Assembly (NCBI GenBank): GCA_001001705.1
Contig: LCOG01000002.1
Location: 20,056-84,055, forward strand
Source of the DNA: Parcubacteria group bacterium GW2011_GWA2_47_26
GTDB taxonomy: Bacteria; Patescibacteriota; Patescibacteriia; GWA2-47-26
DNA length: 64,000 nucleotides
Direction: 5' to 3'
The translations under genes and the position numbers were made by a program. This document shows, in pieces, positions 3,171 through 55,595 of this stretch (the first letter of the stretch is position 1; the number at the start of each line of letters is the position of its first letter). Under the pieces are notes generated by a model. The model saw only the letters and a list, made by a program, of their open reading frames with translations. It did not search any database and was not told where the DNA came from.

Positions 3171-3258
3171 TCACATCACAAAGGGTCTATCGTAAGTCCA
3201 CTAGATTATGTTATACTAAATATATTCAAGCTATGTGGATAACTGACACCGAAGGTGT

Positions 3259-3335
3259 CAGCCTGACCCCGCCAAAGCGGGGGAAGGATCCCCAGCATAC
3301 AAGAATGAGATTCTTCACTATGTTCAGAATGACAC
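3259..3335. repeat. Family A palindromic element (degenerate copy) upstream of pilin gene
   Basis: GTCAGCCTGA...GGAAGGATCCCC...GATTCTTCACTATGTTCAGAATGACA. Confidence 0.5.
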
Positions 3336-4476: not shown

Positions 4477-4568
4477 TCAGAGTCATAAGATGTATATGTG
4501 AAAGTAAAGGATCGCCCATACACAGGGGCGGTCCTTTTGTGGTACACTACAGATGTAGAACAACTGTT

Positions 4569-23267: not shown

Positions 23268-23300
23268 TAAGGCGATCCGAAAGACGATCATATTAATTAT

Positions 23301-24512
23301 ATGCCCAACATGCAAAGAATAAATTCAAAAGAATATGCAGAACAAGTAAAAACGACGGCGCGCAACCTAGCTATATTTGGCGATCGTGCCGGCGCGTTTG
23401 AGTTTGCGCGCGCGATTCAAGAATTATTAAAAAATCCGGAGCTAAACGCGGAGGTGCGCCCACTGTACGAAGATGCGGAGCGGGACGCCTTATTTGCCGC
23501 GATTCCTGTGCTTCCGGATCGTGAAGTTTTGCAAGGGCTGGAAAAACATCTTGCGTATTATCTTGGGCAAGAAAATTATGATTTGCTCTCGGTCATAAAA
23601 AGCAAGCTTTCAGGCATTGATATTGTTGAAGAACGTGATGCGTTCCGCGCGATGTTACGCGATTCTTTAATGAACGCGGACGGCAAAATTTCCGAAAAGA
23701 TTGAGTTGCTGGATGGAAGTCAGGAGGGATCCCCGCGTAATTGGCTGTCATATTATTTGCAAACTGTTGGCGGCGTAATTCCCGACACGTTTAAGCGCAC
23801 AGAGTTTATTGCCAGCCGTCCGGTTGAGCATGCAAAACCAGTAGAACAAGCGCGGCTTAAGCGATTGATTGAGTTGTTTGATTACTTGCGGCTTTCCTCG
23901 GCTACGGGCGCGGGTTTTGAGGAGGAATTAGTGGCGGATTTTGACGAGCGGATCATGATTTTGCAAGATGGCAAAGTCACGCAAATTGATCCCAAAACCG
24001 ATGAAATTATGAGCAAGACTATGCCGGCAATGCTCACGGCGTTAAAGCAAGCATGGGCCAGACAAGCCGCGCAGCCGACTGATTTAGAAAAAGAAGCGCG
24101 GGAGCAGGCCAAAAGCCTTAATCCCGCTCAAAGCCAGCAAACAATCGCGGAGATTTTTACAGCCAAGAGTTCTAAAGATCAAAAAAACGGATTAGCGGCT
24201 TTATATGGCGCGATTGGCGGCGGTTTGGATATATTTCTCAAACAGATTTTGCCGACTTTACAAGCTCATCTTAAAGATGCGCCTGAAGCAGAGCGGAGCG
24301 CTTCGCTTTTGCAAAGCGGACTGATTACTCCAGCGGTGGCCAAAATATTCTTGCGGATTTATTTGGAAAAACTTTTGGGTTTTTCTATGGACCATGCCGC
24401 GGCTTTGGTTGGGCGCATGTTGGGCACTTTGTCTCCGGCAGAGCGCGACAAATACTTCAAGGTTGCTTATTACGATTTTGAAAAAGGCTGGTTTGTTTGG
24501 GGCGAAGTTTAA
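23301..24512 (+). CDS. Hypothetical protein
   Basis: Long ORF, no recognisable motif. Confidence 0.55.
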   Translation: MPNMQRINSKEYAEQVKTTARNLAIFGDRAGAFEFARAIQELLKNPELNAEVRPLYEDAERDALFAAIPVLPDREVLQGLEKHLAYYLGQENYDLLSVIKSKLSGIDIVEERDAFRAMLRDSLMNADGKISEKIELLDGSQEGSPRNWLSYYLQTVGGVIPDTFKRTEFIASRPVEHAKPVEQARLKRLIELFDYLRLSSATGAGFEEELVADFDERIMILQDGKVTQIDPKTDEIMSKTMPAMLTALKQAWARQAAQPTDLEKEAREQAKSLNPAQSQQTIAEIFTAKSSKDQKNGLAALYGAIGGGLDIFLKQILPTLQAHLKDAPEAERSASLLQSGLITPAVAKIFLRIYLEKLLGFSMDHAAALVGRMLGTLSPAERDKYFKVAYYDFEKGWFVWGEV

Positions 24513-24619
24513 TTCCATTCAAGGTGCCTCGTTGATTATGTCCGATGAAATTTTAATCAAAGGTACCGATGGCCCGCCTACGTTTCTGCTCCGTTTTAAT
24601 TCCGAGCAATAAAAAAAGA

Positions 24620-24643
24620 CTAGCATACTCGCTAGTATGCTAG
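24620..24643. promoter_or_regulatory. Inverted repeat CTAGCATACT-cgct-AGTATGCTAG upstream of the TrpR/YerC-like gene
   Basis: 10-bp arms; same arms recur at 25305. Confidence 0.5.
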
Positions 24644-24690
24644 GACCATATTTCTAGCGTGTCATCAGATGTGCGCTTAGACTATAGCCT

Positions 24691-25308
24691 ATGGCAAAAT
24701 TTAGTTCCCGACAAAGACTGGACCATAAACAGCGGCAAAAGGTATTGCTCGAGCTTTGCCATGCGTTAGTTGTGGTCAAGAAATTGGATGAAGCCGCTAA
24801 AGTGCTTGGCGATTTATTATCTGACCAAGAAATTGAAATGATTGCTAAGCGTTTGCAAATTGCAAAATTCTTGCTTCAGGACAAGAAGTACGAGGAAATT
24901 ATGGAGCAGTTAAAAGTTAGTGCTACTACTATTGCCCGAGTAAACCTTTGGCTCCAACAGGCCGGTGATGGGTTTCGGATGGTGATGTCCCGTGGGCTCG
25001 CTAAGAACAGTGTCAAGATTCCGGAGTGGCAGCCTCCGGCACGCAAAAGCGAAATGGCACGACGTTTCCCGCTTTATTATTGGCTGCAGGGATTGCTGGA
25101 AGGCATTATCCGCGCCGCAAATAATCGTCAGCGTGCAAAGATGCTGGAGACGCTCAAAGTGTTGAGGGTTTCTGGTAAAGGCAAGCGCGAAGTGTTTCGC
25201 TATGTGGAAGAGCTGATTCATAATCAGCAACGGAGCCCAAATCCGCGTCGTTTGCGGTCACTTGAGCTTGAAAAGGAAATGCAATTGGAGAAAGTAAAAC
25301 AATACTAG
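24691..25308 (+). CDS. TrpR/YerC/YecD-like DNA-binding protein
   Basis: LSDQEIEMIAKRLQIAKFLLQDKKYEEIMEQLKVSATTIARV helix-turn-helix resembling the Trp-repressor-like YerC family. Confidence 0.55.
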   Translation: MAKFSSRQRLDHKQRQKVLLELCHALVVVKKLDEAAKVLGDLLSDQEIEMIAKRLQIAKFLLQDKKYEEIMEQLKVSATTIARVNLWLQQAGDGFRMVMSRGLAKNSVKIPEWQPPARKSEMARRFPLYYWLQGLLEGIIRAANNRQRAKMLETLKVLRVSGKGKREVFRYVEELIHNQQRSPNPRRLRSLELEKEMQLEKVKQY

Positions 25309-25328
25309 CATACTAGCTAGTATGCTAG
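25305..25328. promoter_or_regulatory. Perfect palindrome CTAGCATACTAGCTAGTATGCTAG overlapping the stop codon of the TrpR-like gene
   Basis: Second copy of the same dyad; extends to a 30-bp perfect palindrome. Confidence 0.5.
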
Positions 25329-25472
25329 TATTAGCCAGATCAGATTCGGATCTTGCAAATCTTGTAAAAAAAGGACGGGATCACAAAAAGGCCCTTGCGG
25401 GCCCTTCGGATGAATTATCTATAATTTATAATAACACATGGGGTATAATTGTCAAGGATGGGGTGTGGATAG

Positions 25473-26807
25473 GTGAACACTATGCAAGATGAAATTTTAG
25501 TTAAAGGCACAGATGGGAAGTGGTATCTTCTGCAAGGGGAGGAGTTGGTGCCGTATGGGGCAGGTACGCAGGGACCAGATAAGCAGGCGGCAGGCGTGAA
25601 ACAAGAGTTGCCTAAAGGGGTGACAGAAGAGAGGCATAAAAAATTGGAAAAGGTGACCAAAGCGGTAGAGGAGCCACATGTGGCAAAAGAAATTTTCTTG
25701 CCAGCCGTAGCTACTCCGCCCCTTCCGGCTGTTTCTGCTCCCGCGCTTCGTGACTTGGTCACTGCCGCAGGCGCAACACGTGACCAAGTCACAGCTCCGG
25801 CCTATATTCCGCCGGAGTTGCCCGAATTAGTCGCGCCTGCTTTGGGGCCGGTAACACACGAAGGACATCCTTTATATAAGGAATTGCAGGAGCTTGTGGA
25901 TCAGGTGGTAAGTGAGAGCGCCGAAATAATTCGCGCTCAAGCGCCAGCTTGGGACGAAATTTTGCAAAAACGTTTCCGGTTCGTGATCTCGGCACGTTTG
26001 CGGGATATGCGGGACGCGGCAGAAACCAAAGCCTTGATATTGCGTGATCAGAAGATTGGTGGTTTAGGTTTGCGCGAGGCAGACGCGCAAAAGGTCACGG
26101 AGTTTACCGAGCGCGTTTTTCAAGAATTTCAAAAAAAGTGGCAAGAGTTTGAGGCAAAGCGCATTGAAGAATGGAAGCGCAAGAAGCGCGAAGAAGCGGC
26201 TCATAGCGAAGAAGTTTGCAAGAAAAAAGAAGAGCAGGAGATGGAGGAGAGATACGCCCGCCTTACAGGCGAGGTTGCAAAAGTGGCAGAGGTGGCAAAT
26301 GAGCCAAAGATTAAGGTACCCAAACCTCAAACCTCAAACCTCAAACCTCAAACAGCCCCAAATATTAAAGCTCAAAAGCCAAGGATAATAGAGCAATCCA
26401 GAACATCTGTCACTTCTGAAACATTTGCAACATCTGTGACTTTGCCGCGAAGCAGCAAAGTCACAGATGTCCGTACCCCGCCGAAACTCTTGGGACCGGT
26501 GGAGGAACTGCAAAGCATAAGCCCCCAAGATTTTAGACGGCTGGGCGCGCCTGGCGAGGCAACTGCAAAAATCAAGGCCAAAGTAGATTTTTTGGCGCAA
26601 GAATCATTTACAAAATACAGAAATGGAATCAAGGCTTGGCAAAGTTCGCCACTGCACAGACTGTATTTATTCATTAGCGGAATATCCTTACGGGAACGCA
26701 AGAGTATTGAGCAAGTTATAGGTGATTTACAGGTGCAAAACAAAGACACACTCACACCTGACGAATTTCATGCTATAATGGAGTTGAATAAACAATTGAG
26801 GTTTTAA
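25473..26807 (+). CDS. Hypothetical K/E-rich coiled-coil protein with PQTSNLK repeats
   Basis: Long ORF; contains an in-frame family D element and a 7-nt tandem repeat. Confidence 0.55.
   Translation: MNTMQDEILVKGTDGKWYLLQGEELVPYGAGTQGPDKQAAGVKQELPKGVTEERHKKLEKVTKAVEEPHVAKEIFLPAVATPPLPAVSAPALRDLVTAAGATRDQVTAPAYIPPELPELVAPALGPVTHEGHPLYKELQELVDQVVSESAEIIRAQAPAWDEILQKRFRFVISARLRDMRDAAETKALILRDQKIGGLGLREADAQKVTEFTERVFQEFQKKWQEFEAKRIEEWKRKKREEAAHSEEVCKKKEEQEMEERYARLTGEVAKVAEVANEPKIKVPKPQTSNLKPQTAPNIKAQKPRIIEQSRTSVTSETFATSVTLPRSSKVTDVRTPPKLLGPVEELQSISPQDFRRLGAPGEATAKIKAKVDFLAQESFTKYRNGIKAWQSSPLHRLYLFISGISLRERKSIEQVIGDLQVQNKDTLTPDEFHAIMELNKQLRF
25750..25791. repeat. Family D element within the 25473 gene
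   Basis: GTGACTTGGTCACTGCCGCAGGCGCAACACGTGACCAAGTCAC. Confidence 0.8.
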
Positions 26808-26816
26808 GGTATGCAA

Positions 26817-27020
26817 TCCCGTTAGAAGCCGCGGTCGTTGGTTTGTGGAGTAGATAATATTCATATGCAGAAAGGTCAAATGGTTTTAATAAATAACCTC
26901 GCAGGGCGGGCGACCGCGACCTGTCCCGTTAGAAGTGTTGTTCTAACGGGTAATCAATCAGGAGTCTGGGGAGTGTTCAGTATTATGGGCACTTCTAACG
27001 GGACCTGCTTCTAACGGGAT
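26817..27020. repeat. Family B element (expanded/composite) ending on the ATG of the PrgI-like gene
   Basis: ATCCCGTTAGAAGCCGCGGTCG ... GGCGACCGCGACCTGTCCCGTTAGAAGTGTTGTTCTAACGGG ... ACTTCTAACGGGACCTGCTTCTAACGGGAT|G. Confidence 0.75.
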
Positions 27021-27444
27021 GCAACAATTCGTCGTCCCCCAATTCATTGATGTTGAGGATAAGATCATCGGCCCGATTACCACGCGGCAGTTTATTATTA
27101 TGCTTGTCGTGGGACTGGCAATTTTTATCTTCTATAAAATACTGGCCTTTATTCCTTTTGTAATCTCGGCAATCCTTTTGTTCGGTGCCGGAGGAGTAAT
27201 TGCATTCTTGCGCATTAATGGTCAACCCTTTCATTTTTTTCTGCTTAACGTCTTTCAGACTTCGCGCCGGCCAAAATTAAAAGTTTGGAACAAAGAACTG
27301 ACTGACGCGGAATTAAGAGAAAGATTAACTGCTCCACTGCCGCCGCATCCACTGCCGCCGCCGCGCAAAGAATTGTTGACCACTTCACGGCTGAACGAGA
27401 TAGCGCTGGTCGTGGACACTGGCGGTGTTTATACGCCGGAATAA
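27019..27444 (+). CDS. PrgI/VirB3-like small membrane protein (T4SS component candidate)
   Basis: 141 aa, two hydrophobic helices, immediately upstream of and overlapping VirB4. Confidence 0.5.
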   Translation: MQQFVVPQFIDVEDKIIGPITTRQFIIMLVVGLAIFIFYKILAFIPFVISAILLFGAGGVIAFLRINGQPFHFFLLNVFQTSRRPKLKVWNKELTDAELRERLTAPLPPHPLPPPRKELLTTSRLNEIALVVDTGGVYTPE

Positions 27445-28147
27445 TATGCCCGAAATGCAATCAAAAAAATTAGCCGGAGCCAAACCCGGGCCCGCAGTCC
27501 AGCAGTATCTTGATATTGCGGAAATAAAAGAAGATGTAGTGGTTTTAAAAGATGGAACCCTGCGGGCCGTGCTCGCGGTTGCTTCAGTAAATTTCGGTTT
27601 AAAGTCCGAAGATGAACAAAATGCCACCATCTCCGCCTATGTGCAATTTATCAATGCTCTAGAGCATCCTTTGCAGATCGTGATTCAGTCCCGCAAGCTT
27701 AATATTGATGAGTATATAAATCGCCTGGAGCGCGCGGAGCATGAGCAGACCAATGATCTTCTGCGTCTGCAGATTACAAACTACCGCTCTTTTATTAAAG
27801 AATTGGTTGAACTCGGCGAAATAATGTCTAAACGTTTTTTTCTTGTTGTGCCATACTCGCCATTATCCGATAAACGCAAAGGGTTTTGGTCTAGGTTTTC
27901 AGAGCTTTTGCGTCCGCTAGTTACCGTGCGCATTCGAGAAGAGCGTTTTCGCGCTCATCGCGGAGCTCTTTTGCAAAGAGTCTCACATGTGCAAAACGGG
28001 CTGTCTTCCATTGGGCTGAAATCACAAGCGCTGGATACCCAAGCTTTGATTGAGTTGTACTACAGGGTTTATAATCCTGATATCGCTGAAGTGGAAAAAT
28101 TGCAGGATCTGGCTAAGATTAAGACTGAAGAGTCGTACGCGGTCTGA
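27425..28147 (+). CDS. virB4: VirB4/TrsE/PrgJ-family ATPase, N-terminal portion (split gene)
   Basis: N-terminal domain typical of Gram-positive VirB4 homologues; ends at TGA directly before a family G element. Confidence 0.65.
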   Translation: MFIRRNNMPEMQSKKLAGAKPGPAVQQYLDIAEIKEDVVVLKDGTLRAVLAVASVNFGLKSEDEQNATISAYVQFINALEHPLQIVIQSRKLNIDEYINRLERAEHEQTNDLLRLQITNYRSFIKELVELGEIMSKRFFLVVPYSPLSDKRKGFWSRFSELLRPLVTVRIREERFRAHRGALLQRVSHVQNGLSSIGLKSQALDTQALIELYYRVYNPDIAEVEKLQDLAKIKTEESYAV

Positions 28148-28149
28148 TT

Positions 28150-28235
28150 ATGTAGCATGTAGCCTGTAACATATAACACAAGATTGAAATTGAGTACGCT
28201 CTTGGGTTACATGCTACATGTTATAAGTTTACATG
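28150..28235. repeat. Family G hairpin element separating the two virB4 ORFs
   Basis: ATGTAGCATGTAGCCTGTAACATATAACACAAG...TTACATGCTACATGTTATAAGTTTACA. Confidence 0.7.
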
Positions 28236-28239
28236 ATTT

Positions 28240-30114
28240 ATGCCTTTACTCGGTAAGAAAAAACCCCCGATAGCTATCGGGGCGCCCCAGGTGACTGTGG
28301 CGGCGCAAAAAGCCAAAGCGGCCGAAGAGCGCATCGTGCTTGAAGAAGAGCGCGTATATCGGCGCGGTGTAGTTTCAGTGCGCGATATTATAGCGCCGGC
28401 TTCCATGCAGCTGACGCCTTCTTTTGTGAAGCTGGGCGATGTTTTTGTGCGCACCATTTTTGTCGTTTCTTATCCTCGCTATATCGCAGTGGGTTGGTTT
28501 ACGCCCATTGTTAATTTGCCGGTAACTTTGGATATTGGTATGTTTTTCTATCCGGTTAAGTCCGATGTTATTTTGAAGCAATTGAAGAAGAAAGTCGGCA
28601 CGCTTGAGGCCCAAGTTATTGCTGATTCGGAAAAAGGCGCTCCGCGCGATCCGATTCGCGAGACCGCCTTGCGCGATATTGAAAAGTTGCGCGACGATTT
28701 GACCCAAGGGACAGAAAAGTTTTTCCAGTTCGCTCTTTATGCGACAATTTACGCAAAAGACAAAGCCGAGCTGGAAAAGCTGACCGAGGATATAGAAGCG
28801 CTCTTCGGCAGCAAATTGATTTATTCTAAAAAAGTATTTTTCCAGGCGGAGCAAGGCTTTAATTCCACAATTCCGTTAGGCAATGACGAACTCATGATTG
28901 CCTTTAACATGAATTCCTCCCCGATTGCCTCTTCGTTTCCGTTTATCTCCGCGGATTTAACCTCGGATAACGGCATTCTCTACGGCATTAACCGTCACAA
29001 CAATAGCCTCATCCTGTTTGATCGTTTTTCTCTGCAGAATGCCAATTTCGTGGTCTTTGCCACCTCTGGCGCCGGTAAAAGCTATACCATGAAATTGGAA
29101 ATTTTGCGCTCTTTAATGCTTGGCACAGACGTAATTGTGATTGACCCGGAAATGGAATACAAGCATTTATCCGACGCGGTTGGCGGCACCTATATAAATA
29201 TTTCCCTGGCGGGCGAGGCCAAAGTAAATCCTTTTGATCTTTCGCGCCCGGTTGGCGAAGAGGTTAAGACCGAAGATATAATCCGTTCCGCGGTTATCAC
29301 GATTAAAGGATTGTTAAAAATAATGCTTGGTCAATTTACCCATGAAGAAGATGCCCTGATGGATCGCGCGCTTATTGAGACTTATGCGAAAAAAGACATT
29401 ACCGCCACCTCTGATCTTTCTAAAGTGGAGGCGCCAATTATGTCTGATTTGCAAGAAGTGCTGGAGGGCATGGAAGGCGGGGCTTCTTTGGCCGAGCGGC
29501 TGAAAAAATATACGACTGGAACATTTGGCAGTCTTATCAATAGCCCGACCAATGTTGATATGCGCAACCAGTTAGTGGTTTTCTCTGTTCGCGATTTGGA
29601 GGACGAGTTGCGGCCGATTGCCATTTACTCGTTAGTCAATTATATCTGGAATGTGGTGCGCTCGGAGCGCAAGAAAAGAATTTTGACCATTGATGAGGCT
29701 TGGTGGCTTATGCAAAATGAGGATTCGGCAAAATTCATTTTTGCGCTTGTTAAACGCGCGCGAAAATATTATCTTGGAGTAACAACCATTACGCAGGATG
29801 TAAACGACTTCCTGCTTAATCCTTACGGTAAAGCGATTGTAACCAACTCCGCCCTCCAGTTGCTTTTGAAGCAATCGCCCGCCGCTATCGATCTAGTCCA
29901 GCAGACCTTTATGCTTACTGAAGGGGAGAAATATTTACTTTTGGAATGTGCGGTTGGAGAAGGCATCTTTTTTGCCGGCGCAAAACACGCCGCTATAAAA
30001 GTCGTGGCTTCCTACGCCGAAGATCAGCTTGTTACGACCGACCCTCGCCAACTGCTTGAGCTGGAGGCGGCTAAGAAAGAATTTGAGGAACAAATGATGC
30101 CTAAGGGCCTATGA
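28240..30114 (+). CDS. virB4: VirB4/TrsE/PrgJ-family ATPase, C-terminal ATPase portion (split gene)
   Basis: Walker A FATSGAGKSYTM, Walker B ILTIDEAWWLM, conserved C-terminal motifs. Confidence 0.85.
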   Translation: MPLLGKKKPPIAIGAPQVTVAAQKAKAAEERIVLEEERVYRRGVVSVRDIIAPASMQLTPSFVKLGDVFVRTIFVVSYPRYIAVGWFTPIVNLPVTLDIGMFFYPVKSDVILKQLKKKVGTLEAQVIADSEKGAPRDPIRETALRDIEKLRDDLTQGTEKFFQFALYATIYAKDKAELEKLTEDIEALFGSKLIYSKKVFFQAEQGFNSTIPLGNDELMIAFNMNSSPIASSFPFISADLTSDNGILYGINRHNNSLILFDRFSLQNANFVVFATSGAGKSYTMKLEILRSLMLGTDVIVIDPEMEYKHLSDAVGGTYINISLAGEAKVNPFDLSRPVGEEVKTEDIIRSAVITIKGLLKIMLGQFTHEEDALMDRALIETYAKKDITATSDLSKVEAPIMSDLQEVLEGMEGGASLAERLKKYTTGTFGSLINSPTNVDMRNQLVVFSVRDLEDELRPIAIYSLVNYIWNVVRSERKKRILTIDEAWWLMQNEDSAKFIFALVKRARKYYLGVTTITQDVNDFLLNPYGKAIVTNSALQLLLKQSPAAIDLVQQTFMLTEGEKYLLLECAVGEGIFFAGAKHAAIKVVASYAEDQLVTTDPRQLLELEAAKKEFEEQMMPKGL

Positions 30115-35883: not shown

Positions 35884-37458
35884 TTATGGACATGGTCTGC
35901 TTTCCAGGCCTTTGATCAAATTTGTGGGATCCAGTAGTGACGGTGGTTTTGTAATTAGAAATTCTCGCGCACATTTGTTAGTGCCGATAGTACTCTGCCC
36001 CGGGGGGGGATTCCATCTAAAATTTCTTCGTGCCCGTCCTGGATAAGCTTCAAGGTGTAACATATCACAAAATGTGGCTTTTCCAAGAGTTTGTCCTTTA
36101 GTCACAGTGGCTCGCGCTCTTATACTGGATGGAACCGTTCCGCTATTTATCTCTCCGTATACTACCGTGATGTTGAGTTTTGGATGAAATACAAGTACAG
36201 CTACGCTTTGTCCCCCGCTGCATGGATAAAAATTATAAGTGTTAACAACCTCACCGCTGTCCAGCGCTACTACTTCGCCATCGCCTTGAGTATAAAGGTC
36301 AATCCCGGCGTGGCATCTCGCCCCTTGGGCACGGTCATCGCCCCAATTCCAAGAGATTTGTTGTAGACTGCCGGTCTTTATTGGGAGACATTGGTCCGTG
36401 ATGTTGTAGTTTGTAGCCCCGGTGGTCCATGTCCCAGTTTCTCGAATTTCCTCACCTGCTCCCGGGGGCTCAAGCTCTATCTTTTCTATTTGCTCTACTC
36501 GCAACGGCTGAAAAACCACCAAATCTGGATTTATAATCATCAAAATTATGTACGATCCCAAAACCAGTATAAGTCCAACCGAGGCATCCGCGATTTTGCG
36601 TTTGGCGTCGCTTATTTTATCCGGACTGCCGCCGGCGGTGAGCCATTTGAATCCGGCGTAAACAATCATTATTCCCGCGATTACCCCCACCACGGAAACC
36701 AAAAATTTATATACTGCGGCCAGGTATTGAGCGAGAAAATCAATGATCAGAAATTCTCTATCGCCTTCAGTTGTTCTAAATGGCACGGTAAAAGGTTGCA
36801 GTGTAACGAGCGGAATTTGCAAGCGGGGAAGAGCGATTTGAGCTGGGGGGAGTTCGGAGGTTGGAACGCATTGAGAGACAAATGTGCGTGTGGCCCGATG
36901 CCCCTCTTCTCTGATCTGACATCTAAACCCACTTGCGCAATCAGCATCTGTACCACACCCCTCACTTGCTGCTGTTAAAACACATCTCTCACTTTGACAT
37001 TGTAAGTTTGGCGAAGAAGAAGATACACATTGACTATTATTATTACAAGGGCATCCAATGGGCATGAACCCGTTGTGCCCCGGCCCTCTCGGCGCCATGA
37101 TGTCAGAAAAAGACATGCATGCATTGCGTGGCGAAACCCAAGCCTGACCCGCCGAGCATCGTCGATCGTTACAGTTTATAGTTTCAGCTGTTCCTTCGCC
37201 GCCTTGACATACGCGTAAACTCGTATTACATATTCCACCTCTTCCACAATCTGAATTACTTAAACATGCGCCCCCGCTATGAAAATATGCGGTTTGCATG
37301 CATTGCCTTGCGGCGAACTGGCAGAGATGGGGAGGGGCAAGACTAGCGCAATCGGAATCTTGGGTACAAGGTGTTGCTTGCGAGGTTAGCGGTAACATGA
37401 ATAATAGCAATGAAATAATGCTGAGCACTAAAAGCAATTGTTTTTGCGACCGTAACAT
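35884..37458 (-). CDS. Secreted Cys-rich protein with central TM hairpin (TrbC/VirB2-like) and C-terminal M23 (LytM) peptidase domain
   Basis: Signal peptide; repeated C-x-x-D-x-D-C motifs; two TM helices separated by a charged loop; M23 signatures HAGIDL...G.V.A...G.V and HLH (MLHLEAY). Confidence 0.7.
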   Translation of the reverse strand: MLRSQKQLLLVLSIISLLLFMLPLTSQATPCTQDSDCASLAPPHLCQFAARQCMQTAYFHSGGACLSNSDCGRGGICNTSLRVCQGGEGTAETINCNDRRCSAGQAWVSPRNACMSFSDIMAPRGPGHNGFMPIGCPCNNNSQCVSSSSPNLQCQSERCVLTAASEGCGTDADCASGFRCQIREEGHRATRTFVSQCVPTSELPPAQIALPRLQIPLVTLQPFTVPFRTTEGDREFLIIDFLAQYLAAVYKFLVSVVGVIAGIMIVYAGFKWLTAGGSPDKISDAKRKIADASVGLILVLGSYIILMIINPDLVVFQPLRVEQIEKIELEPPGAGEEIRETGTWTTGATNYNITDQCLPIKTGSLQQISWNWGDDRAQGARCHAGIDLYTQGDGEVVALDSGEVVNTYNFYPCSGGQSVAVLVFHPKLNITVVYGEINSGTVPSSIRARATVTKGQTLGKATFCDMLHLEAYPGRARRNFRWNPPPGQSTIGTNKCAREFLITKPPSLLDPTNLIKGLESRPCP

Positions 37459-46894: not shown

Positions 46895-49609
46895 ATGAAC
46901 TTATCGGTTTCCTACAAATGGTTAAAAGAATATTTGCCCGGACTTAAGGCTGACCCGGAAGAGGTGGCGGCCAAATTGTCCCTGCATTCTTTTTCTGTTG
47001 AACGCTGGCAGAGAACGGGAGAAGGACTTAATGAGCGTATTGTGGTTGGAAAAATTAAAAAAATCGAACAACATCCCAATGCGGATAAGTTGAAAGTTGC
47101 GCATGTGCAAGTCAGTCCACAGTCGACAATCGACAGTTCACAGAAAATTGTTTGTGGCGGTACGAATATCCGCGAGGGACAGCTCGTGGCTTTGGCATTG
47201 TCGGGCGCAAAGGTGCGTTGGCACGGGGAAGGGGAGTTGATTGAACTCAAGCCCACAGAGATTCGCGGAGTCCGAAGCGAAGGCATGATTTGCGCGGCTA
47301 ATGAAATTGGTTTATTTGAAATGTTCCCGCATAAGGAGAGGGAAATTTTGGATTTAACCGCGACCGGTGCGCAAGTTGGCGTGCCGCTTGCCAAAGCGCT
47401 TGGGTTAGATGACACGATTTTTGAGGTTGAAGTAACTACCAATCGTCCTGATGCAATGGGGATAGTGGGCTTGGCAAGAGAGGTAGGGGCGATTTTTGGC
47501 GTGCCGTTGAAGTTGCCGCAGATTAAGCAGATTAAGCAGATTAAGCAGATTAAGCAGATTAAGCAGTTGGAGGTGCGCATAGAGACTTCCAAACTTTGCC
47601 CGCGCTATATCGCCGTCATGATGGAAGGCATTAAAGTAGCGCCTTCGCCTTGGTGGCTGCAGAGAAAATTAATTGCAAGCGGAATTAGGCCGATAAATAA
47701 TTTGGTGGATATTACAAACTATGTTCTTTTAGAATATGGCCAGCCGTGTCATGCGTTTGATGCGGGGAAATTGAGCGACGGAAGTGACCATGCCACTGCC
47801 GTAGGCGCAACACGTGGCCTGGTCACGGAGAGCTGTTCCATTGTAGTCCGCATGGCTAGGAAAGGAGAAAAGATTTTAGCATTGGATGGAAATACGTATG
47901 GTCTTGACGAAAATATTTTGGTGATTGCTGATGCAAAGCGACCAGTGGCGATTGCAGGAATTATGGGAGGAGAGGAAACAGGCGTACATGCAGATACAAC
48001 GCGCATTGTGTATGAGATTGCGAATTTTGATCCGATTACGGTGCGCAAGGGTGAGCATCAATTGGCGCTTACCAGTGATTCTTCCGCGCGGTTTAATAAA
48101 GGTTTGCCAGTGAAGTTATCAGAATATGCCGCGGCGAGGTTGATTGAACTAACCAAAGAGGTGGTGGGTGGTGAAGTCATGGGTGTGGTTGACAAGAAAT
48201 CTCTACGCCGTCATCCTGAATGCAGTGAAGGATCCCGTGGAAGTAAGAACGGGATTCCTCGCGGAGTGCAACCCCGCACCGAACTCCGTTCTGGTGCGTG
48301 GGCTCGGAATGACAAGCTAGTTGTAGCTGTGTCTCCGCAAGATGTGGCGCAAAACATCGGCATTGATATTCCAAGAGCGCAAATGAAAAAATATCTTACT
48401 GCTTTAGGATTTAAGGTTAGCGGTTCAGCTAAAAAATGGTCAGTTGCGTTTCCTTACTGGCGCACAGTTGAGGCTGATGGAGTGGCTGATATCTCTGAAG
48501 AAGTAGCGCGGATGTATGGGTATCATAATCTGCCAAGTGTTTTGCCAGCAGGCACTTTGCCAGACGAGGCGCCCAATCCGGATTTTGCCCATGAGCAAAC
48601 AGTCAAAGATATACTGCGCGGCGCAGGCTTTACCGAGTTATATACTTACTCATTTGTCTCATCTGACGATATAATCAAAGCTGGCCTTGACGCAGGTGAG
48701 GACGCCGCAGCAATTGCTAATCCGCTCACTTCGGAGCTTACGCACATGCGGCCATGGCTTGGCATTTCTATATTGCGCGCGATTGAGAAAAATCAGACGA
48801 TGGCTGATGTGCTTAAGTTTTTTGAATTATCAAATGAATACCATCCCCGTCATAGCGGTCATTCCGAGCCCGCGCACCAGAGCGAAGCTCGGTGCGGGGT
48901 TTTACTCCGCGAGGAATCCCGTGCTTTACAGAACGGGATCCTTCGTCGCATTGCTCCTCAGGATGACACTGCGTGTCAACTGCCTGAAGAACGTCAAAAA
49001 CTTATCGTGGCGGGAGCGGGCAAGGAAGAACACGACGGAGAAAATTTTTATATTATAAAAGGTTTAGCCGAATATTTGGCCGTAACTCTAGGCTTGCCAA
49101 AATTGAGCTTTGTGCCAGCCCCAAAAAGCTCCGCGCTGTATAAATGGTTCCATCCGGCGCGGGTTATATGGTGTAAAGCAGGCGAAGATTTTCTGGGCCC
49201 GTTGGGCGAGGCGCACCCGACACTGCTTAAGGCCTTTGGCATCACGCGCCGTGTGGCTTTTCTAGACTGGGAAATTAAAGCGCTTTTTCCCTTGATTGGC
49301 AAAGGGCGTGTCTATAAATCTCCTCTAGCATATCCGCCAGTCAAACGCGATGTTGCGTTTATTGTGTCTAAATCTGTACAATATGCAAGTATCTTGGAGA
49401 CTATAGTAAAGCTTGATCCACTGATTTATGAAGTTGAGCTTTTTGACCAATACGAAGGCAAAGGCGTACCTGCGGATTCCAGAAGTTTAGCTTTTCACAT
49501 AACCTATGCCAGTTATGAACGCACCCTGACTGCGGAAGAAGCAGAACGTGTGCATGACAAGCTCACGAAAATTTTAAAGGAAAAATTTGACGCAAAAGTG
49601 CGCGAGTAA
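46895..49609 (+). CDS. pheT: Phenylalanyl-tRNA synthetase beta subunit (tandem QIK repeat, family D and two family A elements in frame)
   Basis: N-terminal tRNA-binding OB fold, B3/B4, FDX-ACB C-terminal domain. Confidence 0.9.
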   Translation: MNLSVSYKWLKEYLPGLKADPEEVAAKLSLHSFSVERWQRTGEGLNERIVVGKIKKIEQHPNADKLKVAHVQVSPQSTIDSSQKIVCGGTNIREGQLVALALSGAKVRWHGEGELIELKPTEIRGVRSEGMICAANEIGLFEMFPHKEREILDLTATGAQVGVPLAKALGLDDTIFEVEVTTNRPDAMGIVGLAREVGAIFGVPLKLPQIKQIKQIKQIKQIKQLEVRIETSKLCPRYIAVMMEGIKVAPSPWWLQRKLIASGIRPINNLVDITNYVLLEYGQPCHAFDAGKLSDGSDHATAVGATRGLVTESCSIVVRMARKGEKILALDGNTYGLDENILVIADAKRPVAIAGIMGGEETGVHADTTRIVYEIANFDPITVRKGEHQLALTSDSSARFNKGLPVKLSEYAAARLIELTKEVVGGEVMGVVDKKSLRRHPECSEGSRGSKNGIPRGVQPRTELRSGAWARNDKLVVAVSPQDVAQNIGIDIPRAQMKKYLTALGFKVSGSAKKWSVAFPYWRTVEADGVADISEEVARMYGYHNLPSVLPAGTLPDEAPNPDFAHEQTVKDILRGAGFTELYTYSFVSSDDIIKAGLDAGEDAAAIANPLTSELTHMRPWLGISILRAIEKNQTMADVLKFFELSNEYHPRHSGHSEPAHQSEARCGVLLREESRALQNGILRRIAPQDDTACQLPEERQKLIVAGAGKEEHDGENFYIIKGLAEYLAVTLGLPKLSFVPAPKSSALYKWFHPARVIWCKAGEDFLGPLGEAHPTLLKAFGITRRVAFLDWEIKALFPLIGKGRVYKSPLAYPPVKRDVAFIVSKSVQYASILETIVKLDPLIYEVELFDQYEGKGVPADSRSLAFHITYASYERTLTAEEAERVHDKLTKILKEKFDAKVRE
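47518..47566 (+). repeat. Tandem 9-nt repeat (CAGATTAAG x5) inside pheT encoding QIKQIKQIKQIKQIK
   Basis: Direct reading of sequence; motif shared with family H hairpins. Confidence 0.85.
47784..47826. repeat. Family D element within pheT
   Basis: GTGACCATGCCACTGCCGTAGGCGCAACACGTGGCCTGGTCAC. Confidence 0.75.
48210..48313. repeat. Family A element within pheT (copy 1)
   Basis: GTCATCCTGAATGCAGTGAAGGATCCCGTGG...GGGATTCCTCGCGGAG...CGGAATGAC. Confidence 0.75.
48859..48968. repeat. Family A element within pheT (copy 2)
   Basis: GTCATTCCGAGCCCGCGCACCAGAGCGAAGCTCGG...GGGATCCTTCGTCGCATTGCTCCTCAGGATGAC. Confidence 0.7.
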
Positions 49610-50862: not shown

Positions 50863-51267
50863 ATGTCTGATGAACAAAAAAATATTGAGGTCCCTGAAAA
50901 ATTTAAGGGACTCGTAGAGCAGATTGAGAAGCTTTCCGTTCTTGATCTCTCGGAATTAGTAAAAGTTCTAGAAGATAAATTCGGAGTTTCTGCCGCAGCT
51001 CCGGTAATGGCTGTGGCCGCCGGCGCTCCAGCCGCCGCCCCCCCCGCTGAAGAGCAAACCGTCTTCAATGTGGAGCTTACGGAGTCGGGCGCCAATAAGA
51101 TCGGCGTGATTAAAGTCTTGCGCGAACTAACCCAGCTTGGCCTTAAAGATGCCAAGGACTTGGTTGATGCCGCGCCGAAGATGGTAAAGGAAGGGGTTGG
51201 CAAGGCTGAAGCCGAAACCATGAAAAAGAAGCTAGAAGAAGCCGGTGCCAAAGCGACCTTGAAGTAA
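50863..51267 (+). CDS. rplL: 50S ribosomal protein L7/L12
   Basis: Ala-rich hinge, C-terminal [23 protein letters not shown]. Confidence 0.9.
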
Positions 51268-51288
51268 AGGCCAATATAGCTAAAACTA

Positions 51289-51317
51289 AAACTCGCCGGA
51301 TACACCGGCGAGTTTTT
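51289..51317 (+). terminator. Rho-independent terminator after rplL
   Basis: CTCGCCGG-ataca-CCGGCGAG followed by TTTTT. Confidence 0.7.
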
Positions 51318-51336
51318 GATGTGTGTGTGTTGAATA

Positions 51337-52395
51337 ATGAATCTATGTAGGGTATACTGTATAACTAGTATGACTCTAGAATCGCTCGCCCCGTATTTAG
51401 TAATTGCAGGTATTATTCTGCTTCTTTTTTGGACGCAGAAAAGCAAGCTTAAGGGCGTATTCGGCGCAGGAACGCCGATTTTGAATAGTTACACCACGGA
51501 TTTTACACTGCTCGCCAAAGAAGGAAAGCTCAAACCCGTTATAGATCGGATTAATGAGCATGCGCGGATAATCCAAATTTTATCACGCAAGGAAAAGAAT
51601 AATCCGATTCTTTTAGGCGAAGCAGGCGTAGGAAAGACCGCTATTGTTGATGGGTTGGCGCAAAGCATCATTGCCAGCGAAGTGCCTTCTTCTTTACTTG
51701 ACAAGCGCGTCCTGGGCCTTAATGTTTCAGCTTTAATTGCGGGAACAAAATACCGCGGCGAATTTGAACAGCGTTTGAAAAAAATCGTGGAGGAAATTCA
51801 GCGTGCTGGCCGGAGCGTTATTTTGTTTATTGATGAGATTCATCTGCTTGTTCAGGCCAAGGGGTCAGAGGGCGCACTAGACCCGACCGATATTTTAAAA
51901 CCCGCGTTGGCTCGCGGAGATCTTCAAGCTATTGGCGCTTGCACCATGGAGGAATATAACCAGTATATCAAGCCTGATTCAGCTTTAGAACGCCGGTTTC
52001 AGCCGGTTTTTGTTGGCGAGCCTTCAGTAAAAATGACCATTGAAATTTTAAAGGGCGTGAAAAAAGTATATGAAGATCATCATCATGTGCGCATTACTGA
52101 TGAAGCCGTTAAAACCGCGGCCGAGCTTTCGCACGAATATATCAAAAAACGCTTTTTGCCGGATAAGGCCATTGATTTAATTGACGAAGCATCCGCAAAA
52201 GTGCGTTTGGAAACCATCGAGATACCTAGACGCATTGAAACGCTCAAGACTTCTTCCAATAAAAAGTTGGAAATTGTGCATCTGCAAAAAATGTGGGATG
52301 ATGATAAAAATGGCATATTGCCAGCGGTTGAACCCGAGCAAATTCGGGAAATTATCACTATGTCAACCGGTCTGCCGGTGAGGAAGTTAAAGTAG
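51337..52395 (+). CDS. Clp/Hsp100-family AAA+ ATPase, membrane-anchored, first nucleotide-binding domain only (truncated or naturally single-domain)
   Basis: N-terminal TM; Walker A GEAGVGKT, Walker B ILFIDEIH, ends at the TGLPV motif that normally precedes the second nucleotide-binding domain; stop abuts the poly-G repeat. Confidence 0.7.
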   Translation: MNLCRVYCITSMTLESLAPYLVIAGIILLLFWTQKSKLKGVFGAGTPILNSYTTDFTLLAKEGKLKPVIDRINEHARIIQILSRKEKNNPILLGEAGVGKTAIVDGLAQSIIASEVPSSLLDKRVLGLNVSALIAGTKYRGEFEQRLKKIVEEIQRAGRSVILFIDEIHLLVQAKGSEGALDPTDILKPALARGDLQAIGACTMEEYNQYIKPDSALERRFQPVFVGEPSVKMTIEILKGVKKVYEDHHHVRITDEAVKTAAELSHEYIKKRFLPDKAIDLIDEASAKVRLETIEIPRRIETLKTSSNKKLEIVHLQKMWDDDKNGILPAVEPEQIREIITMSTGLPVRKLK

Positions 52396-52396
52396 A

Positions 52397-52440
52397 AGTT
52401 ATCCACATGAGATATTGCGCAAAATCGTGGGGGGGGGGGG
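52397..52440 (+). repeat. 44-bp direct repeat AGTTATCCACATGAGATATTGCGCAAAATCGTG(G)12, copy 1, abutting the clp-like stop
   Basis: Identical to copy at 53669 including 12-G homopolymer. Confidence 0.8.
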
Positions 52441-52479
52441 AGACTAGAGGAATGACATTAGCACTTAAAAAATAAGGGT

Positions 52480-52872
52480 ATGCTAGATAACGAAGTCACC
52501 AACAATGAAATCATGGAGTTTCTAAAAGAAACAGTAGCGACCAAAGAAGATCTTAAAGCCTTCGCCACGAAAGATGATCTTAAATCTTTTGCCACCAAGG
52601 AGGATCTGAAGGCCTTTGCGACCAAAGAAGATTTGAAAGCCTTTGCCACGAAGGAGGATTTGTACAGGGCCAAAGACGAGATTTTAGCGCGTTTGGCAGA
52701 ATTTCAGTTTGAGCTTGAAGAGATTAAAAAACGGCTGGAGAAAATTGAAAAGACGCTTAAGGAAGATACAGATGCACTAGTTATGGAGGTAGAACAATTG
52801 AAAGAACGGGTTGCAGTATTAGAAGTGCATCTTGGAATTCAAAAAATGGCCGCAGTAAGCAATAATTTATAG
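52480..52872 (+). CDS. Hypothetical coiled-coil protein with five ATKEDLKAF tandem repeats
   Basis: 27-nt tandem coding repeats. Confidence 0.5.
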   Translation: MLDNEVTNNEIMEFLKETVATKEDLKAFATKDDLKSFATKEDLKAFATKEDLKAFATKEDLYRAKDEILARLAEFQFELEEIKKRLEKIEKTLKEDTDALVMEVEQLKERVAVLEVHLGIQKMAAVSNNL

Positions 52873-52900
52873 AAAACAAAAGGGCAGATTAAGCCTTGAG

Positions 52901-53641
52901 TTGTCGACTAAATATCCAAAACCTATGTTGTCGCAGACATCTAAAATAATTATTGCCATTGCTATTACGGCTATTGTCGCGGGTGGGGCAATATTTTTGT
53001 GGCAGGGCCGTATTCAACAATCAAGACAACCTGAAAATTTTCAAATAGAACAAATAGAACAATCTAAACAACTTCTTGAGACAACGCCGTCATCAGCGGC
53101 AAAACAGCAGCAATATGATTTTTTCTGCTACCCAAAAGGACAAGCGCCCCAACAGGTCAAAATTATATTAAATCCTCTTCTTGATCGCGCGGGTTGGCGT
53201 AATGCTGATGGCGGTGCAAGGGTTTGTCTTGATACAAGCGGGTCTTTTAGACGCGCACTTGTCCTGACCAATGACTGTCATCCTACCGATGATGTGGCCA
53301 ACCCCGCTGAACCATGTCGAACGACAGCTATAGTACTTATTGACCTTGTGACAGGGTCAATACGGTCTCTTGTAAGTCAAACGATTACTGATGAATTTTA
53401 TGGTACGCGTCCCTTTACCGAAATTCTAAGTTGGGCATCCGACTCTGTGGCATATCGTGCACTTCCAATACGTGGCGCTGGTGAATACGGTGATATAGAA
53501 TGTGTGCCGCAGGATATTAAAAAATATTACGCGTATCAAGACCGCGTGCTTACCATCGCCGATGGTCAATCTCGTGTTTTGCAAACGTGTTATAATGTCT
53601 CCTGTTCTGATTTGAGCGAGCTGGAATGTGTGCCACAGTGA
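52901..53641 (+). CDS. Hypothetical secreted Cys-containing protein (ECVPQ motif twice)
   Basis: N-terminal TM/signal, 8 Cys. Confidence 0.5.
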   Translation: MSTKYPKPMLSQTSKIIIAIAITAIVAGGAIFLWQGRIQQSRQPENFQIEQIEQSKQLLETTPSSAAKQQQYDFFCYPKGQAPQQVKIILNPLLDRAGWRNADGGARVCLDTSGSFRRALVLTNDCHPTDDVANPAEPCRTTAIVLIDLVTGSIRSLVSQTITDEFYGTRPFTEILSWASDSVAYRALPIRGAGEYGDIECVPQDIKKYYAYQDRVLTIADGQSRVLQTCYNVSCSDLSELECVPQ

Positions 53642-53668
53642 TAGTGGTTGAAATAGGAGAGAGGTTTC

Positions 53669-53712
53669 AGTTATCCACATGAGATATTGCGCAAAATCGT
53701 GGGGGGGGGGGG
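53669..53712 (+). repeat. 44-bp direct repeat with 12-G tract, copy 2
   Basis: Identical to 52397..52440. Confidence 0.8.
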
Positions 53713-53826
53713 TAAACTGGATGCAAACACTGTTTTGTATTGTGATGAAAGTAGGTCTAGCAATAAGCAATATCAATAATACTTAACACTAGTGAATATT
53801 TAACTAAATGATTTTTAACCCACTAT

Positions 53827-54204
53827 ATGTTAAAAAGGATCACAAAATCGGCAGTATTTGCATTATTAGGTCTTAATCTGGTAACGATTACAAATCAACT
53901 GGTTCTTGCCCAGTCAAGATGTGTTCTCAATGGACAAGAAGTCCCTTGTGAAGAATTGGCTGAATCAGCAAAAGGAATGATAGGCTGGGGCATAGGTTTA
54001 CTTGCCGTGATATTTGTTGTTGGGATAGCGGCGACAATTTTTTGGCTTTTGATGATAGTGCATGCCGCCTCTCACCCTATTGAGAATAGAGCGATGTGGA
54101 TTATCTTGATGGTGTTAACAGGCGTAGTCGGCGCGTTGATTTATTATTTTGTTGTTAAGCGAAAATTCAATGGACAACTGTCACAGCCCACTGTAACGCG
54201 GTAA
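53827..54204 (+). CDS. PLD-nuclease N-terminal (PLDc_N) domain small membrane protein
   Basis: WGIGLLAVIFVVG...WIILMVLTGVVGALIYYF pattern. Confidence 0.55.
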   Translation: MLKRITKSAVFALLGLNLVTITNQLVLAQSRCVLNGQEVPCEELAESAKGMIGWGIGLLAVIFVVGIAATIFWLLMIVHAASHPIENRAMWIILMVLTGVVGALIYYFVVKRKFNGQLSQPTVTR

Positions 54205-54231: not shown

Positions 54232-55323
54232 ATGGAGACACAAAATATGCCACCCGTAACAACTCAAACCAAAACCAAAGTCGGAGTCGGAACAAAAGTC
54301 GCCGTAGCCCTGCTTATTGTAGGCGGAGCCGTAGCCGCGGCTTTTGCGATACCTAGGATTATAAACAAACCCATGTTTTTGGTACGCTTGCTAGATCTTA
54401 CCGTGACAAGTATCAGCCCGGACTTAACTACGAAGAGAACAACTGTCCGTGTGCAGAATATTGGTTCAGGACCTATCAGCAGTGCTCCGTCTGGACCTAG
54501 TGCTTCAAGATTAAAGCTAGAAGCGGTTGACGCGGATGGCATGATAATTGGATCTTCTGTAACCACAGTTGATCTTCCGCCCAGTATTGCGGCTGGATCA
54601 GAATGGGTGGCAGCGATTGACCTTTTTCCTGCCGGTTATTCTGGCCCCGAGTCTATAGTGGACTATCCTGTCGGAATGGTTGCTTTTCGTGCTACCGTAG
54701 ACTATGACAATGTCATCAGGGAAAGCAACGAAGATAATAACATTTTAAAACTGGCTTGGTCTCCACCTGCGCCTGTGGCACCCGTTGCATCCCGTTTATC
54801 ATTTACCCTTGCGCCGACATCGCCCTCTGGCGCAGGAGTCGGAGTGAATGAGGTGTTGCGATTTAATGTTACGAATGAGTCACCGGTTGATGCCGCTCTT
54901 ATAGATATGCATTTTGATGGCGCTGGCACTGATAATGCGGGGTCAAGATGGCCTGAAACCGGGCCACTAATGCGCAGTTGGAGATTATATGATCAAACGG
55001 ATTTATCTACCGCGCTCGGAGATTTACTGACAGTTCCTAGAGTACTACGCTGGGATGGTGCAAATTGGAATACTACAGATGCAGAAATAGAATTTAGTGG
55101 CCCCGGTTTCCTTTTGATATCAGCCGGCACTACTAGGACCTTGATTTTGAAAGTTGATACCATAGGAGCGAGTGCGGTTAGGGATGATCTGGTGCGCTTT
55201 GACTTAATGAGAGTAACTTGGGTGAATGCAGGCACGACGGGTCCACTGTCTGGGGCAGGTTCTCCTTTTGAACCAGGCGTAGTTGGCACACCGCTTGTGA
55301 CAGGCAATACGCTTAGCTATTAA
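54232..55323 (+). CDS. Secreted CARDB-like (cell-adhesion related) domain protein
   Basis: N-terminal anchor, CARDB-like block DLTVTSISP...VDYDNVIRESNEDNN. Confidence 0.5.
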   Translation: METQNMPPVTTQTKTKVGVGTKVAVALLIVGGAVAAAFAIPRIINKPMFLVRLLDLTVTSISPDLTTKRTTVRVQNIGSGPISSAPSGPSASRLKLEAVDADGMIIGSSVTTVDLPPSIAAGSEWVAAIDLFPAGYSGPESIVDYPVGMVAFRATVDYDNVIRESNEDNNILKLAWSPPAPVAPVASRLSFTLAPTSPSGAGVGVNEVLRFNVTNESPVDAALIDMHFDGAGTDNAGSRWPETGPLMRSWRLYDQTDLSTALGDLLTVPRVLRWDGANWNTTDAEIEFSGPGFLLISAGTTRTLILKVDTIGASAVRDDLVRFDLMRVTWVNAGTTGPLSGAGSPFEPGVVGTPLVTGNTLSY

Positions 55324-55407
55324 TTAGAGGTGGTAAAATTACACAAAAGCAGTCCCGCAACCGCGGGACTGCTTTTGTGTTGGAAGAATAAGGGACCGTT
55401 GCCGAAT

Positions 55408-55480
55408 GTCATCCTGAGCGCAGCGAAGGATCCCGAGCATCTAAAAAATAACGGGATTCTTCACTTCATTCAGAATGACA
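55408..55480. repeat. Family A element, intergenic
   Basis: GTCATCCTGAGCGCAGCGAAGGATCCCGAG...GGGATTCTTCACTTCATTCAGAATGAC. Confidence 0.8.
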
Positions 55481-55595
55481 ATGGAAAAAATTATATTCGG
55501 CAACAGTCCCATTAAGACAAGACGAAGCAAGCTCTAAAACTCTCGTTCCGAAATTGACACGATCGTGTCAATTTCGGGATAGCCTGCGGGACCGA

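Follow-up and report, generated by a model that had tools for sequence, protein, structure and literature searches.

The locus described here raises two questions: why does an identical sequence ending in a long run of G occur twice among genes for membrane and surface proteins, and is the Clp-like ATPase gene that ends beside its first copy a broken gene? The window, that is, the whole stretch of DNA analyzed, comprises 64,000 nucleotides of the Parcubacteria group bacterium GW2011_GWA2_47_26 (contig LCOG01000002.1, positions 20,056 to 84,055). A preliminary description made from its letters took the repeats for attachment or duplication sites of an inserted two-gene cassette that had replaced the 3' half of a clp gene, and added that the G-runs could mediate slipped-strand phase variation of flanking promoters. 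We call the repeat E and the ATPase gene the AAA gene. Our analysis points, tentatively and with somewhat less than even confidence, to E being a duplicated regulatory (promoter or operator) module that contains a slippage-prone G-run and stands ahead of envelope-protein genes, that is, a candidate contingency locus. It also shows the Clp-like open reading frame (ORF) to be, as judged from alignments, not truncated but an intact member of a widespread, unnamed Patescibacteria family of one-ring membrane-anchored proteins.

A duplicated module ending in a G-run

The repeat, AGTTATCCACATGAGATATTGCGCAAAATCGT followed by 12 G, occurs exactly twice in the window, on the forward strand, and the two copies lie 1272 bp apart from start to start without a single mismatch, which bears out the identical 44-bp repeats originally reported at a distance of about 1.27 kb. 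Each run has 12 G in total; this number had been given correctly, but the accompanying notation 'GTG(G)12' would imply 13. No third copy with up to three mismatches was found in the window, and shuffled sequences gave no match. The parts of the two copies are as follows.

52397-52440, +: module E copy 1 (44 bp, identical to copy 2), with weaker similarity on to ~52451
52399-52407, +: TTATCCACA in copy 1
52415-52422, +: palindrome core TTGCGCAA in copy 1
52429-52440, +: G12 homopolymer of copy 1, ending 39 nt before the ATG of the coiled-coil gene
53669-53712, +: module E copy 2 (identical 44 bp)
53671-53679, +: TTATCCACA in copy 2
53687-53694, +: TTGCGCAA in copy 2
53701-53712, +: G12 homopolymer of copy 2, ending 114 nt before the ATG of pldN
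53713-53718, +: TAAACT, a putative -10-like hexamer directly 3' of the copy-2 G-run (4/6 match to TATAAT)

Both copies are intergenic and on the coding strand, and they begin 1 nt (copy 1) and 27 nt (copy 2) past the stop codon of the preceding gene. Copy 1 had been placed immediately after the Clp stop; it does adjoin it, but one base separates the TAG at 52393-52395 from the repeat. Copy 1 precedes the genes for a coiled-coil protein and an eight-cysteine (8-Cys) protein, and copy 2 precedes the genes for a PLDc_N membrane protein (pldN) and a CARDB surface protein. By chance, 64 kb would contain about 0.004 runs of at least 12 G or C, against the two G12 observed, and G or C 8-mers match 13 times in the window versus 1.2 expected.

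The similarity between the copies extends beyond the G-run. Copy 1 of the window reads G12 followed by AGACT, whereas four other assemblies have G11-12 followed by TAGACT or a contig that starts inside the run and continues from G into TAGACT; the copy-1 counterpart of TAAACT in these assemblies is TAGACT, and with the T restored the repeat becomes 50 bp long with one mismatch. On the 3' side of the G-run 8/11 bases match between the copies (p ~0.002), giving a decaying edge, whereas on the 5' side only 7/30 match, which is the chance level and defines a sharp edge. E as a whole (~50-55 bp) consists of the DnaA-box-like 9-mer TTATCCACA, 7 nt, the 14-bp imperfect palindrome ATATTGCGCAAAAT around TTGCGCAA, 4 nt, a run of 11-13 G, and TA(G/A)ACT. 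Its secondary structure on both strands was no better than that of shuffled sequences and contained no hairpin (z-scores -1.5 to +1.2), and no Rfam family matched E at an E-value of up to 1.

E copies or their unique junctions are present in at least eight independent assemblies (ENA, JGI, and Logan-type) from several samples, and the same locus lies on an ENA contig of 84,239 bp and on many shorter contigs from other groundwater samples. Copy 1 reads G12 plus TAGACT in L001 and L059 and G11 plus TAGACT in L004. Copy 2 reads G12 plus TAAACT in the window, L001, and L052 and G12 plus AAAACT in L010; contig L055 opens with 13 G before TAAACT, so that copy 2 has at least 13 G there. The sequence reads through the G-run into the correct unique flanks in L001, L004, and L059 for copy 1 and in L001, L010, and L052 for copy 2, and at least seven contigs have an end within a G-run, which shows that long homopolymers fragment metagenome assemblies at this locus. 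Exact matches to E elsewhere numbered 0 in a genome contig collection (31-mer) and 0 in a metagenome contig collection (23-mer), both apparently without contigs of this genome.

The palindrome core TTGCGCAA is over-represented in the window, with 11 occurrences against 4.06 expected and none of 100 shuffles reaching 11. The nine copies outside E all appear by their coordinates to lie inside ORFs (for example, at 2638, 13931, 15628, 22749, and 32544), and a regulon defined by this motif was set aside because such positions probably reflect a composition or codon effect. A 14-nt sequence, TCAGTTATCCACAT, at 3233-3246 (-) exactly matches the 5' end of copy 2 plus two upstream bases (Blast E = 0.014 within the window). 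This match is intergenic, contains the perfect DnaA-box-like 9-mer, and adjoins a different repeat element.

A candidate slippage-prone promoter

In the mechanism that we tentatively favor, the G-run would be a slippage-prone spacer that separates the -10-like hexamer from a recognition element upstream, either TTGCGC (as a -35 element) or the palindrome (as the site of a regulator). If replication added or removed G, the two transcription units would be turned on, off, or to an intermediate level, independently of each other and reversibly. The spacing from TTGCGC to TA(A/G)ACT would be 20 nt at G12, and G9 or G10 would bring it to the optimal 17-18 nt; the alleles seen in the assemblies would accordingly represent low or off states, unless activation relies on a bound regulator rather than on a -35 element. 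The -35/-10 logic applies to this organism because its primary sigma-70 is complete (regions 1.1 to 4).

Several observations are consistent with this mechanism. The repeat, identical over 44 bp upstream, reaches into the -10-like hexamer and then decays, and the predicted membrane and secreted products downstream (N-terminal anchors, a lipobox-bearing 8-Cys family, PLDc_N, and CARDB) would be fitting targets of a contingency locus. Repeat-length polymorphism is real in this population, as shown by a 9-nt repeat in pheT that differs by two units between assemblies. The readings of G11, G12, and at least G13, together with the contig breaks, may reflect a tract of heterogeneous length; they are also typical of Illumina sequencing at long homopolymers, and sequencing error is possible.

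The proposed spacing logic is the same as that of the Neisseria porA and opc and Mycoplasma hyorhinis vlp promoters, in which a homopolymer between -35 and -10 alters their spacing and hence promoter strength and in which the targets are surface proteins. The difference is that hexamers and 'on' lengths have been defined experimentally in those systems, whereas the hexamers of E are weak and a spacing of 19-21 nt would be off. A second parallel is offered by the Bordetella fim2, fim3, fimX, and fimN promoters, which share a common element with a C-stretch whose length sets transcription (PMC1891110). As is proposed for E, a promoter-region module is repeated there before several surface-protein genes and a long G/C homopolymer lies upstream of the -10 (7-22 nt in Bordetella, PMC1891110, and 12 nt in E); the tract of E stands directly 5' of the -10-like hexamer, after a palindromic candidate regulator site. 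A survey of homopolymeric tracts in Bordetella uses the promoter-overlap classes 'high' (21-80 nt) and 'moderate' (81-150 nt), and the ends of the G-runs, 39 and 114 nt 5' of the starts, fall into the 'high' and 'moderate' classes, respectively (PMC1891110). By contrast, the activator BvgA is known and the downstream genes are paralogous in Bordetella, whereas E is known from sequence alone and in two copies, the genes downstream of it are mutually unrelated, and its host is an uncultured Parcubacteria bacterium.

A number of points weigh against this mechanism. The hexamers match the consensus at only 3/6 (TTGCGC) and 4/6 (TA(A/G)ACT) positions, a consensus promoter scan called none in E, and G11-13 gives a spacing of 19-21 nt, which is outside the sigma-70 functional range. 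Only two copies of E are known, and their equal modal length would fit recent duplication as well as selection. The differences in G-run length and the unstable base after the run (T, A, or missing) are typical of Illumina errors at long homopolymers. No intrinsic terminator was predicted between the five same-strand genes from AAA to CARDB; these could therefore be read from the AAA promoter with no need for an internal one. Slipped-strand variation of the flanking promoters, as first suggested, is the candidate explanation that best fits the evidence.

If expression is indeed switched by the G-runs, E would provide the Candidate Phyla Radiation (CPR) with a concrete candidate for a contingency locus. 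CPR bacteria are tiny, host-dependent, and uncultured, and their surface proteins are thought to mediate host attachment and phage exposure. Full-text searches found no literature linking simple-sequence-repeat phase variation with CPR or Patescibacteria.

Alternative explanations for the repeats

The explanation that survives next best, although we consider it unlikely, is a recombination scar: a 1.27-kb two-gene segment would have been inserted, site-specifically or by homology, or the junction duplicated, leaving attL/attR-like repeats with a G-run of no regulatory role. The 44 identical bases and the sharp 5' boundary would suit such an event, but the 3' boundary decays, and 44-50 bp is far above known target-site duplication lengths. 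In other CPR genomes, genes of the 8-Cys family do occur singly and sporadically, in surroundings that are unrelated (upstream of mraZ or downstream of a NUDIX gene), yet no flanking repeats were found at these homologues. The GC content falls to 0.37-0.41 in parts of the segment (versus ~0.47), but phage and plasmid records contain nothing similar to it. Neither integrase nor transposase domains were detected in the ORFs scanned at 35.9-64 kb or in the large ORFs scanned at 8-35 kb, there are no terminal inverted repeats, E has no hairpin or attC-like fold, and its GTTATCC does not fit the integron core GTTRRRY. Reading the sequence by eye revealed no inverted repeat at the segment ends, the repeat search itself having covered direct repeats only.

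Among the contigs retrieved via four locus proteins, none joins the AAA gene directly to pldN and none has a circular junction; a single-copy attB (empty site) was not seen either, the relatives being without E altogether and having the next gene directly after the AAA gene. The closest related loci found in the genome and metagenome collections have at most 62% identity and are informative for architecture, not for E. The genes between the repeats are indeed missing from the closest relatives, but so is pldN, which lies outside the bracket. Compared with locus L007, in which the AAA protein is 72% identical, the window has three extra genes (coiled-coil, 8-Cys, and pldN), of which only two stand between the repeats; hence, a module that heads each of two gene sets fits better than one that brackets a single cassette. 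With no recombinase in the scanned ORFs, no inverted repeat or hairpin, and no empty or excised junction, the original view of the repeats as attachment or duplication sites is not supported.

Known kinds of mobile or chromosomal sites were also considered. Integron cassettes, att sites, and Xer/dif modules resemble the E locus in that two direct repeats bracket a small accessory gene set, but they differ in that the E locus has no integrase found, no attC hairpin, no GTTRRRY core, no dif-like arms, and no skew switch. An integron cassette was argued against by the missing attC fold and GTTRRRY core and by the lack of an integrase among the proteins scanned. A transposon or miniature inverted-repeat transposable element was rejected because the repeat is direct, is 44-50 bp long (versus 2-14 bp for target-site duplications), and folds without a hairpin. 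For an Xer/dif site or an oriC DnaA-box cluster, the GC skew is positive through 58 kb with no sign change at the locus, each copy has a single DnaA-box-like 9-mer, and inspection showed no dif-like palindromic arms in E.

An effect of E on RNA or elongation within one operon from AAA to CARDB is improbable in our estimation. E would be a G-quadruplex or exonuclease barrier stabilizing the upstream message, or a pause or slippage site setting polarity. A run of at least 11 G can in principle form a two-tetrad quadruplex, and both the position of E so close behind the upstream stop codons (1 and 27 nt) and the missing terminators among the five genes would suit this explanation. On the other hand, E showed no conventional structure and no Rfam match, although folding tools cannot model quadruplexes, and the perfect conservation of the 32 non-G bases and the extension into the -10-like hexamer would be left unexplained.

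A slightly smaller chance still is given to E being an undescribed kind of element, either a cassette site served by a recombinase in trans or a regulatory one that would link a hypermutable G-run to the binding of DnaA at the perfect TTATCCACA box. In the former case, E, which is ~50 bp long and contains a poly-G, could be the attachment or recombination site of a small recombinase-in-trans gene-cassette system in CPR bacteria.

It is very improbable that the repeats or G-runs are assembly or sequencing artifacts. Many contigs break in the G-runs and the base after the run is T, A, or missing, but each copy is traversed into its correct flanks by several assemblies made independently from different samples. 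Because these unique flanks differ between the two copies, E is not a collapsed or duplicated contig end, and assembly duplication, which had been raised as a possible objection, was not borne out.

The Clp-like ATPase, its relatives, and the rest of the window

The genes of the locus are all on the forward strand, in the order pheS, pheT, a 118-amino-acid (aa) ORF, rplJ, rplL, AAA, E copy 1, coiled-coil, 8-Cys, E copy 2, pldN, and CARDB, with a convergent 766-aa gene after the CARDB gene. The features from the end of rplL onward, apart from E, are listed below.

51288-51316, +: terminator-like hairpin with a T-run closing the rplJ-rplL unit (12-bp stem, 7 GC pairs)
51330-51358, +: promoter-like site TTGAAT-17-TATACT just 5' of the AAA start (9/12 consensus matches; a consensus match only)
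51370-52395, +: gene for a membrane-anchored single-ring ClpC-D1-like AAA+ ATPase, 341 aa, complete as judged from Pfam, the family alignment, and the stop in L008
52480-52872, +: gene for a small coiled-coil protein, 130 aa, ATKEDL-repeat and DUF1640-like, with 27-nt tandem repeats at 52537-52659
52925-53641, +: gene for an N-terminally anchored extracytoplasmic 8-Cys protein, 238 aa, of a rare family
53827-54204, +: pldN, gene for a small membrane protein, 125 aa, with a PLDc_N-type domain; not in the relatives' loci
54232-55323, +: gene for a membrane-anchored CARDB-domain surface protein, a conserved type of AAA-gene neighbor

The AAA protein has an N-terminal hydrophobic helix, and Pfam finds only AAA (1.7e-11) and AAA_lid_9 (1e-29) in it before the C-terminus ...TGLPVRKLK. 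The preliminary description was thus right in seeing an N-terminal helix plus domain 1 only and an end just past TGLPVRKL, but not in starting the ORF at 51337: gene callers and homologue N-termini indicate that the likely start is ATG 51370, and 51337 lies within the promoter-like site. The closest solved structure is Staphylococcus aureus ClpC (6em9), the residues 158-434 of which, corresponding to the first ring (D1), align with E = 4.5e-101; a second, weak aligned stretch to ClpC 426-491 corresponds to the linker into the second ring (D2). NCBIfam ClpB/ClpA models match in their first half only (384 versus a cut-off of 1232 bits). Pfam found neither D2 domains (AAA_2 or ClpB_D2-small) nor Clp_N (PF02861) in the ORF.

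This architecture is shared by a family. The 5.8 billion proteins searched include dozens of Patescibacteria homologues that share its domain set and are 330-395 aa long, and three GTDB Patescibacteria genomes encode the same architecture in 368-385 aa. In an alignment of 16 family proteins, which are 51-85% identical to the window protein and have 90 invariant columns, all members have one N-terminal hydrophobic helix in the place of Clp_N, end within 10 residues of the W/TG.P motif, and retain the Walker A GEAGVGKT, the Walker B LFIDE, and the pore loop KYRGEFE; none has a D2 domain. Members of the family are therefore built from a single membrane helix, a ClpC-type D1 ring, and a short remnant of the M domain, and they stop just past the W/TG.P motif. 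Compared with the class I Hsp100 proteins ClpC and ClpB, the window protein likewise has the D1 AAA+ module, AAA_lid_9, and the linker motif before D2, but it has a membrane helix instead of Clp_N, only a short remnant of the M domain, and no D2 ring and hence no D2-borne ClpP-docking loop.

In the relative L008, the AAA protein is 83% identical, ends ...TGLPGRKLK with its stop at the same residue as in the window, and is followed after 16 bp by the next ORF, with no repeat and no G-run. The gene is thus complete at the same residue without E, and E was therefore added after an already complete gene. The proposal that a two-domain clpB or clpC gene lost its 3' half to an inserted cassette is refuted, since, although the ORF ends just past the motif that leads into D2 in ClpC and a six-frame scan across the window showed no Clp D2 motifs that could be a missing second domain, the one-domain anchored form is natural in the aligned family and the GTDB genomes and has the same stop without any repeat in L008.

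The neighborhood of the AAA gene varies among relatives in an informative way. In L007, the next gene, 40 bp on, encodes a CARDB protein (32% identical to that of the window, E = 9e-22), with ruvA and a femAB-like gene behind it; in L006, the AAA gene has a CARDB gene on its upstream side and a gene for a 915-aa protein on its downstream side; and in L012 and L013, the AAA gene adjoins an anchored FG-GAP propeller protein. Across L007, L006, L012, L013, and L014, its neighbor is always an extracytoplasmic protein with an N-terminal anchor (CARDB, FG-GAP propeller, or unclassified), and with the window included this holds for six of the seven loci examined, although the neighbor family varies. 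This hints at a functional link between the one-ring ATPase and surface proteins, and the D1-only ClpC-like ATPase may be an uncharacterized envelope-protein handling machine of Patescibacteria. A full-text search found no description of a one-ring membrane-anchored ClpC-like family. For annotation, the correction is that "truncated" Clp genes in such genomes are a genuine conserved family and not pseudogenes.

The coiled-coil protein has five ATK[ED]DL cores, at residues 20, 29, 38, 47, and 56. Five ATKEDLKAF repeats had been reported, but only three are exact; one is ATKDDLKSF and the last is ATKEDLYRA. Its relatives comprise more than 1500 small ATKEDL-repeat proteins from many phyla, some of which are annotated as DUF1640/PF07798, and no homology was found to the ORF after the AAA gene in L008. 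The L004 assembly (JGI 3300025309) has a 20-bp deletion at window positions 52681-52700, flanked by ATTT microhomology, which frameshifts the coiled-coil gene and is either a gene-inactivating population variant or an assembly error.

The 8-Cys protein (UX17_C0014G0008 at NCBI) has eight Cys and an N-terminal hydrophobic anchor, as first described. It is the sole member among close relatives, and a full HMMER scan found ~15 remote homologues, with identities of 21-29% across the aligned proteins. This family has seven invariant or near-invariant Cys, and several homologues have a lipobox or lipoprotein signal. A confident AlphaFold (AF2) model with a predicted local distance difference test score of 80.6 is beta-rich and gave no significant fold match in the PDB. 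A DsbA-like gene is also present in the window. In L050, a 616-bp ENA contig, the first 389 bp are identical to window positions 52674-53062 and are followed by unrelated sequence not found in the window, so that the signal anchor of the 8-Cys protein is joined to a basic tail of 68 aa (P0243); this is either a chimeric contig or a rearranged variant.

Upstream, a weak Rfam match to sroD at 51229-51317 (E = 0.0029; 31.8 bits, the gathering score being 50) falls on the rplL terminator hairpin and is most likely a chance match to it. The pheT gene (46895-49609) contains five to six in-frame units of the 9-nt tandem repeat GCAGATTAA, encoding KQI, at 47518-47565; the assembly L003 lacks two of these units (18 nt, at 47518-47535), a genuine copy-number difference between samples. 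There are also two in-frame insertions resembling GC-rich repeat elements, at ~48150-48330 and ~48700-48830, with peptides such as SEGSRGSKNGIPRGVQP and NGILRRIAPQDD, and sites at 48178-48205 differ between assemblies. The 904-aa product has no Pfam matches on record, and the 898-aa L003 variant has normal PheT domains. Another short repeat element, translating as GILHFIQNDN or EILHYVQNDT, has copies at 55330-55515, in the interval where the CARDB and 766-aa genes converge, and at ~3290-3335, also intergenic.

A G/C-rich inverted repeat with a C8 run lies at 4640-4790 within the listed ORF 4467-5504. A G8 run at 36002-36009 (C8 on the coding strand) lies in the 3' part of a gene for a 524-aa T4SS_pilin-domain protein (35884-37458, -) and could be a coding-region homopolymer switch. 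The regions 20670-30114 and 35884-37458 contain several large ORFs without a Pfam match (865, 403, and 444 aa). Together with this pilin gene, a TraG/VirB4-like ATPase gene at 28240-30114 and a GspE/PilB-type Walker A motif, GPTGAGKST, at 718 in the first ORF indicate that secretion and pilus genes are prominent in the window.

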